64,000 nt of DNA, from assembly GCA_045577985.1 (NCBI GenBank), contig JAZNJJ010000028.1, positions 133,403-197,402 of the forward strand. Reading direction: 5' to 3'. Numbering within the stretch: position 1 is the first letter of the stretch; each line of letters begins with the position of its first letter. Below, piece after piece: positions 30,015 through 30,175 of the stretch. The notes below the pieces were generated by a model, which did not search any database, had not been told where the DNA came from, and worked only from the letters and a program-made list of their open reading frames with translations. The stretch is from Alphaproteobacteria bacterium. Its GTDB lineage: Bacteria > Pseudomonadota > Alphaproteobacteria > RF32 > CAG-239. A program made the position numbers and the translations under genes.

Positions 30015-30036
30015 TTCACATCCTATTGTGTTCAAA

Positions 30037-30175
30037 TGTCCGAAAAAAGGGATCCCTTTTTTCGGACAGAGTTTTTAGACTCTAACAAAATTTAGTTTAT
30101 CATAAAATCAATATGTTGTTTTGCAAGTTAATTTTTGAAAAATTGTCCGAAAAAAAGGATCCCTTTTTTCGGACA
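30037..30175. repeat. Paired-palindrome cassette, copy 2 (palindromes at 30037-30068 and 30144-30175)
   Basis: TGTCCGAAAAAAGGGATCCCTTTTTTCGGACA (a perfect palindrome) and TGTCCGAAAAAAAGGATCCCTTTTTTCGGACA, 107 nt start to start. Confidence 0.95.
30099..30126 (-). promoter_or_regulatory. Sigma70-like promoter inside cassette copy 2, facing the glycan operon
   Basis: On the minus strand: TTGCAA (30126-30121), 16 nt, TATGAT (30104-30099). It sits in the same conserved block as copy 1 (CTTGCAA-N7-TATTGATTTTAT). Confidence 0.55.

Follow-up and report, generated by a model that had tools for sequence, protein, structure and literature searches.

The window analysed here is a 64-kb stretch of DNA with a GC content of ~31% from an uncultured gut alphaproteobacterium. 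The nearest homologues of its Lon protease (38150-40492) were at most 88% identical and were observed in human (Hadza) and ruminant gut MAGs that carry the label uncultured Alphaproteobacteria. A glycan operon that opens with a GT2 glycosyltransferase gene is preceded by a short cassette, copy 2, in which two inverted repeats enclose a core (Table 1). The 32-nt repeat, searched with up to 2 changes, was observed six times in the window, as three pairs, while shuffled sequences are expected to contain none. The sequence-only reading had drawn the cassette at 30015-30175; the cassette is real, but the cassette proper starts at 30037, the earlier start having taken in a 22-nt leader with an RBS. 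The same reading had counted six genes in the operon between 30014 and 23830, where we found five ORFs that reach 100 aa or more, separated by 1, 1, 2 and -41 nt. On its far side copy 2 faces the 3' end of a co-directional MORN-ankyrin gene (959 aa, stop 30266), and the hairpin between this stop codon and the cassette is probably the terminator hairpin of that gene, although it has no clear T-run and the terminator scan made no call there.

Table 1. Coordinates of the copy 2 locus and of the two other cassettes in the window.
Feature	Position	Strand	Description
Copy 2 cassette	30037-30175		139 bp; 32-nt near-palindromic repeat, 75-bp core, repeat
Gene-proximal inverted repeat, copy 2	30037-30068		TGTCCGAAAAAAGGGATCCCTTTTTTCGGACA; perfect palindrome, symmetric variant A6GGGATCCCT6
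Invertible core, copy 2	30069-30143		75 bp
Gene-distal inverted repeat, copy 2	30144-30175		TGTCCGAAAAAAAGGATCCCTTTTTTCGGACA (plus strand)
Promoter-like element	30126-30099	minus	TTGCAA-16-TATGAT; inside core, points at GT2; block common to copy 1
Leader	30015-30036	minus	22 nt, RBS AGGA, between proximal repeat and GT2 start codon (ATG 30014)
Glycan operon	23830-30014	minus	Five tightly packed ORFs
Operon gene 1			GT2 glycosyltransferase, 337 aa
Operon gene 2			RgpF-like protein, 282 aa
Operon gene 3			RgpF-domain protein, 932 aa
Operon gene 4			Protein without assigned function, 288 aa
Operon gene 5			PseF/KdsB-like cytidylyltransferase, 230 aa
Hairpin	30211-30244		14-bp stem, between MORN-ankyrin stop codon and cassette
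Copy 1	10900-11036		Type A, spacer GGATCC, 73-bp core; TTGCAA-16-TATTAT points at pilin gene
Copy 3	37313-37449		Type B, spacer GGTTCC/GGAACC, 73-bp core of a different sequence family

The genes on both sides of copy 2 were observed to differ between assemblies. In another strain (L091:11866-15599, compared with window 23830-28149) the cassette, the GT2 gene and the 282-aa RgpF-like gene are kept while the downstream genes differ, with a 1026-aa TOD1/GT2/WsaF protein and a hexapeptide acetyltransferase replacing the 932-aa, 288-aa and cytidylyltransferase genes. Orthologues of the MORN-ankyrin gene (window 30266-33145) were split or truncated in contigs L083, L084 and L090 (391 aa; 552 + 408 aa; 547 + 425 aa), representing either frameshifts between strains or low-coverage assembly errors.

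The other two cassettes of the window adjoin genes whose products resemble type IVb pilins, with matches to the Pfam families PilS and bundlin and a prepilin-type N-terminus. Copy 1 is flanked by two divergent genes and lies 15 nt from the ATG (10884) of a WbbJ/NeuD-like sugar O-acetyltransferase gene (10117-10884, minus strand, RBS GAGGTG, within the 10117-11698 region) and 17 nt from the ATG (11054) of a pilin gene. Copy 3 precedes another pilin gene (37468-38073) by 18 nt, and in total four start codons of the window have a repeat at a distance of 15-22 nt. The paired repeats of copies 1 and 3 are exact reverse complements in the window. A strong terminator hairpin at 37270-37303 (AAAAAGAGAGACC...GGTCTCTCTTTTTT) ends a 386-aa gene just before copy 3, so the pilin gene behind this cassette cannot depend on read-through.

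The core of copy 2 contains a candidate promoter. Our consensus scan recovered the minus-strand TTGCAA-16-TATGAT at 30126-30099 that had been proposed from the letters alone, and also found TTGCAA-16-TATTAT at 10948-10975 (+) in copy 1. The promoter block said to be common to the two copies, CTTGCAA-N7-TATTGATTTTAT, occurs exactly twice in the window (+ 10947-10972 and - 30127-30102), and the relative orientation proposed for the two cores was borne out by alignment, with z ~6 as claimed vs ~1.5 in the opposite orientation. The stretch after TATTGATTTTAT, described earlier as T(T/G)AT..AA, is indeed part of the shared block but reads T(T/G)AT.AA, with one unmatched position and not two, and an in-register ATTTTG follows the block in both cores. 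A bare consensus match is not above chance in this sequence (4 promoter-like sites per 500 bp vs 2.4 +/- 1.4 in shuffles), and the candidate carries weight because it is conserved between copies and strains, not as a consensus match. Among 10 complete copy 2 cassettes from 8 different contigs and the window, SNPs were observed only at core positions 1, 3 and 66, all outside the -35/-10 block. The consensus scan found no minus-strand promoter-like site besides the core element between the ankyrin gene and GT2, including 30176-30265. The CTTGCA of the block resembles CTTGAC, the alphaproteobacterial -35 consensus. From these features we infer that the core holds a sigma-70-type promoter, with a predicted TSS near 30090.

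Alignment of the cassette across related assemblies, suggested earlier as a check for both orientations, revealed both of them at the GT2 locus. We reached this locus in 10 ENA metagenome contigs from several studies, via four other members of the 90% cluster of the GT2 protein, and the flanks of these contigs match the window apart from a few SNPs. The promoter points toward GT2 in three of the contigs (L081, L086, L087) as well as in the window, while the remaining seven (L082, L083, L084, L085, L088, L089, L090) are flipped, with a core that is the exact reverse complement. The comparison is one between samples or assemblies, each assembly showing one orientation. Contigs assembled at k=141 were observed in both states (L085, L087, L089), with single k-mers spanning the whole 139-bp cassette, and the orientation is therefore not an assembler's arbitrary choice. 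The GT2 gene itself was present as five haplotypes (three toward GT2, two flipped) with 6-11 pairwise differences per 1014 nt, and the distances between them do not split the two orientations into clades. This mismatch between orientation and haplotype suggests more than one inversion event at the GT2 locus, or recombination between strains.

Copy 1 was also observed in both states, its promoter pointing toward the pilin gene in the window and its core being flipped in five other assemblies (L094-L098; 1 vs 5), where the promoter faces the acetyltransferase. The repeats are unchanged in four of these five, L094 carrying an extra SNP in the proximal spacer; the L097 sequence starts inside the distal repeat. 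Two orientations thus occur in nature at two loci, those of copies 1 and 2. Since copy 1 sits between divergent genes, its inversion would toggle expression between the acetyltransferase and the pilin gene. The orientation of copy 3 was constant in the five sequences compared (window, L091, L099-L101).

The two repeats of copy 2 mismatch at one base, and it is this base that makes the GT2-proximal repeat a perfect palindrome. The symmetry pointed out in the sequence-only reading is accurate for copy 2 in the window but is not the norm of the family, being a 1-nt variant confined to alleles with the promoter toward GT2. Position 13 of the proximal repeat was G (symmetric) in all four toward-GT2 sequences, which represent three haplotypes, and A (canonical, A7GGATCCCT6) in all seven flipped sequences; the 1-nt variant is placed at window 30049/30056 (compared with L081-L090). 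A brute-force test found no single reciprocal inversion that interconverts the toward-GT2 and flipped alleles, one base always differing. With five haplotypes the perfect linkage of G13 to orientation could be chance (about 1 in 10). Because a spacer mismatch is expected to slow recombination, the G13 allele may keep the switch locked, or biased, 'on'. Were the mismatch to lie within a staggered-cut overlap, a single flip and subsequent replication would give the canonical flipped allele as observed.

Two observations hint at mixtures of orientations within samples, and neither is proof. At the start of contig L086 the GT2-side flank appears as its reverse complement and runs via a canonical (A13) repeat into the core; this flipped-type junction lies on a toward-GT2 contig, as a fold-back end, and bears the core SNP of its own strain. 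The GT2-flank contig of run X7 stops exactly before the orientation-linked base. The same run contained a 32-nt contig identical to the symmetric repeat with a depth of 370 vs ~13 for unique sequence, so symmetric repeats seem to be common elsewhere in the genome. Logan contigs (k=31) of the locus-bearing runs break at every repeat and are uninformative on orientation because their cores are missing, probably collapsed as bubbles between identical repeat nodes.

To describe the repeat we collected 61 instances, drawn from 26 complete cassettes at 9 loci (window, GT2 locus, and the pilin loci L102, L103 (two), L108 and L109/L111). Positions 1-12 and 21-32 were invariant save for one base in one contig, and the remaining variation was found within positions 13-20. 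Such confinement to the central 8 nt indicates two 12-nt inverted arms (TGTCCGAAAAAA) around an 8-nt spacer. The distal repeat of copy 2 reads TGTCCGAAAAAA-GGGATCCT-TTTTTTCGGACA on the minus strand, and its sequence is identical in both orientation states in the 10 other assemblies. Of the 26 complete cassettes, 21 have repeats that are exact reverse complements of each other, and five have a one-base difference between them. The spacer is asymmetric at its ends only (GGGATCCT vs its complement AGGATCCC), and two classes of spacer were observed, with type A, found with the promoter-block cores of copies 1 and 2, containing GGATCC, and type B pairing a GGTTCC repeat with a GGAACC repeat. Within a cassette the spacer centres of the two repeats co-vary (AT with AT, or TT with AA), as expected if the crossover region must match. 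By its architecture the 32-nt repeat looks like a recombinase site.

The core is 73 bp long in 25 cassette instances and 75 bp in copy 2, placing the site centres 105-107 bp apart, or about ten helical turns; this is very short for recombinase looping and counts against the model proposed below. No recombinase gene was found by Pfam scan among ~50 window ORFs, nor in ~90 kb of related ENA loci. The putative enzyme would have to act in trans and could be of the tyrosine, serine or Piv-like class.

The repeats may also have a role in transcription. Each repeat folds at -15 to -20 kcal/mol, and the terminator scan called a hairpin followed by a T-run as terminator-like at the inward-reading core ends. 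The core end faced by the promoter carries an A-run, and on the other strand, read from outside, the repeat hairpin precedes a run of T, namely T7 (copy 1), GAGTTTTT (copy 2) or T8 (type B).

Most of the cassettes sampled precede type IVb pilin paralogues. Type B cassettes were observed at window 37313-37449, L102:1-79, L103:1-130 and 4035-4171, L108:9846-9982 and L109:9754-9890, and their cores have the conserved block AACGTAACATCAAyAAGTTAAA in common; no recognisable sigma-70 promoter was found in type B cores in either orientation. The T8 end adjoins the distal repeat at five of the six type B loci, the cassette at the start of L103 being flipped. By homology with type A this placement would be off-like, which is compatible with most of the pilin paralogues being silent. 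The pilin family comprises 6433 database proteins at E < 1e-10; the 198,920-bp contig that contains the window encodes at least two additional paralogues, and ~10 others on NCBI contigs may belong to the same MAG.

Roughly 20 gut metagenome runs contain the locus at near identity, and a search for RNA runs that contain it found none. In Logan contigs of host-bearing gut metagenomes the repeat depth was tens to a few hundred times the flank depth, a ratio inflated by overlapping short contigs and thus read only as tens of cassettes per genome, in agreement with the three cassettes in 64 kb. The exact repeat was absent from 185,579 GTDB species genomes, JGI metagenome contigs and viral contigs, and at up to 6 substitutions it was absent from 80 loci from relatives, reached through the Lon protease (best identity 88%). 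The pilin genes of these relatives have no flanking inverted repeats, and at syntenic sites the related species have neither the cassette nor the adjoining pilin gene. The absence of the repeat from the surveyed genomes and relatives indicates that the family is restricted to this lineage. A relaxed repeat pattern gave one match in JGI contigs (L112), which we rejected as an unrelated high-GC palindrome. In a related species, two 23-nt REP-like palindromes (ATTCTCGGA...TCCGAGAAT) lie 25 nt apart upstream of a pilin gene (L003:17843-17913); in sequence they are not related to the cassette. Our search of the literature for the repeat sequence found no relevant context.

Copy 2 is probably an invertible promoter (inverton) whose 75-bp core is inverted by a recombinase acting in trans. 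A recombinase encoded elsewhere in the genome would bind both 32-nt repeats and invert the core, presumably reversibly within a clone. In the state of the window, transcription from the core promoter (CTTGCAA ... TATGAT) would cross the proximal repeat and the 22-nt leader and enter the GT2-RgpF operon, placing what appears to be a strain-variable glycan locus behind a single switch. In the flipped state the promoter would point at the 3' end of the MORN-ankyrin gene, into which antisense transcripts might then reach, and the A-rich core end would adjoin the distal repeat, so that transcripts derived from the ankyrin gene would meet the hairpin and then GAGUUUUU, leaving the operon off. The proposal that the far repeat stops upstream read-through as an orientation-dependent terminator is a tentative, sequence-based one, which we hold somewhat more doubtful than not. 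With tens of switches per genome and two spacer classes, combinatorial surface variation would follow. A wider form of the model comes close to an even chance without quite reaching it. According to this form, one trans-acting recombinase would run tens of ~105-bp mini-invertons, among the smallest natural invertible elements with ~10 helical turns between centres, via lox-like 12-8-12 sites, and the spacer classes GGATCC and GGTTCC would prevent cross-recombination. Each core would combine a promoter with a T-run half-terminator, one side being on and the other insulated, giving combinatorial variation of the pilin paralogues, the O-acetyltransferase and the glycan operon.

The cassettes could instead be selfish repeats present in many copies, like MITE/Correia or REPIN/BIME elements. 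The shared block would then reflect common descent, and the flips would stem from occasional homologous or template-switch events between the 32-nt repeats, without a regulatory role. A 137-139-bp unit with 32-nt terminal inverted repeats, present in tens of copies per genome and missing from related species at syntenic sites, would fit such an element, as would the type B cores without a recognisable sigma-70 promoter. However, no target-site duplication was observed at any copy (flanks AAAA|...|ATGG, CAAA|...|ATCG, AAAA|...|AAGA and so on), and no empty/filled polymorphism was found, all sampled strains carrying the cassette at the three window loci. Four adjoining genes that all start 15-22 nt from a repeat would not be the outcome of random intergenic insertion, and arms that stay invariant while cores diverge are as expected for a protein-binding site. 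Two of the three window loci are polymorphic for orientation among a handful of strains, and in-place inversion is left unexplained by a selfish repeat. With regard to REPIN/BIME in particular, the window contains no RAYT (Y1 HUH) gene, and the cassettes lie 15-22 nt upstream of start codons and not at gene 3' ends. We consider this origin improbable. A role of the repeats mainly as RNA hairpins, either terminators or 5'-UTR stabilisers, with the operon promoter outside the core, draws on their folding energies and on the hairpin and T-run sites called at core ends, but it too leaves the inversion unexplained and finds no minus-strand promoter-like site in 30176-30265; we regard it as very improbable. 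A hairpin role as such is compatible with a switch and is built into our best explanation.

Other alternatives accept or dispute the inversion itself. The inversion could be real with the orientations being old, fixed strain alleles, the 1-nt proximal change marking a locked-on lineage. Consistent with this, each assembly shows a single orientation, G13 is perfectly linked to the toward-GT2 state (3 haplotypes vs 2), and a spacer mismatch is expected to hinder recombination. Against it, orientation does not track the GT2 haplotype distances, linkage this perfect arises ~1 in 10 by chance with five haplotypes, and copy 1 flips with its repeats unchanged in four of five assemblies. The L086 contig joins a canonical-A13 flipped-type junction to the toward-GT2 cassette of the same strain, and the X7 flank contig ends right before the linked base, which also speak against fixed alleles. 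Overall we judge this explanation rather unlikely; fixed ancient alleles are possible as an account of switching tempo but not of mechanism. That both orientations are assembly artefacts of the palindromic repeats is exceedingly unlikely. Many contigs do break at cassettes, the L088 scaffold has an N gap in the distal repeat and the L086 contig end is a fold-back, but both states were observed in the k=141 contigs L085, L087 and L089 spanning the 139-bp cassette, and also in long scaffolds from three different studies.

Invertons have been surveyed by PhaseFinder and DeepInverton, and invertible promoters of capsule and surface-protein loci are described in Bacteroides (PMC11602134, PMC11892184). 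Like those switches, the cassettes reported here place a candidate promoter between inverted repeats, many times per genome, before surface glycan and pilus/fimbria loci of a gut bacterium, and a recombinase would likewise act in trans on a shared repeat family. Unlike them, they belong to an alphaproteobacterium, their repeat sequence is unrelated, and each repeat is a 32-nt palindrome able to form a hairpin. The Bacteroides promoters are inverted by the Mpi serine recombinase or by Tsr tyrosine recombinases, and their invertible segments span roughly 170-220 bp, the 73-75 bp observed here being much shorter. The E. coli fimS switch (FimB/FimE tyrosine recombinases) is similar in that a promoter is inverted before a pilus-subunit gene and reads out through the proximal repeat, as predicted here. 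However, fimS exists as one 314-bp element whose repeats are 9 bp long and whose recombinase genes lie next to it, whereas the cassettes here number tens per genome, have 32-nt repeats and adjoin no recombinase gene. The position of copy 1 between divergent genes differs from both fimS and the Bacteroides capsule and fimbria switches. Compared with known invertible promoters, the elements are thus set apart by phylum and repeat sequence, by a much smaller size, by lox-like 32-nt palindromic repeats and by their many copies.

The organization of the repeat recalls loxP/FRT, with inverted arms, 12 nt long here and 13 nt in loxP, on either side of an 8-nt asymmetric spacer that sets direction, and recombinase sites in inverted orientation give inversion. 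This likeness is one of architecture only, no Cre/Flp-like gene having been found in the window or the ENA loci, and an equally possible enzyme would be a serine invertase whose crossover spans 2 nt (AT at the centre, or TT/AA as in hix sites). Site-specific inversion also diversifies type IV pili in Moraxella (Piv) and in the Rci shufflons of R64 and Salmonella Typhi, and the type IVb pilins of R64 and Typhi match the PilS/bundlin Pfam families, as do the pilins here. Those systems invert coding segments and swap pilin or adhesin C-termini, in contrast to a promoter inverted before complete pilin paralogues and a glycan operon. Neisseria Correia and REPIN/BIME elements share with the cassettes a 100-160-bp unit, terminal inverted repeats, many intergenic copies and the ability to carry promoters and form transcript hairpins. 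Correia elements have a TA target duplication, whereas the cassettes have no target duplication and lie at a fixed distance from start codons; neither Correia nor REPIN/BIME elements are known to invert in place.

Gut Bacteroides are known to vary their surface mainly by means of invertible promoters, and the same strategy would appear here in an uncultured low-GC gut alphaproteobacterial lineage, with tens of copies before type IVb pilin paralogues and a glycan operon. The compactness of the elements (73-75-bp core, 105-107 bp between centres) bears on the minimum DNA loop for recombinase inversion, and the strong hairpins formed by the repeats bear on how a promoter may be combined with an orientation-dependent terminator in one switch. 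The sharply defined 32-nt site makes the recombinase findable and the phase state readable in metagenomes, and the site together with its recombinase could serve as a small synthetic switch.

In an 896-bp k=141 contig (L107:1-896), the distal flank of copy 3 and most of its core are continuous with the proximal repeat and pilin gene belonging to another locus (P0139, as in L103:4190); this is either the product of recombination or gene conversion involving two cassettes, or a chimeric assembly. Single-base spacer changes in one repeat were found in copy 3 (AGGAACCA, L091:2566-2702) and copy 1 (AGTATCCC, L094:2451-2482), and such changes may disable individual switches.
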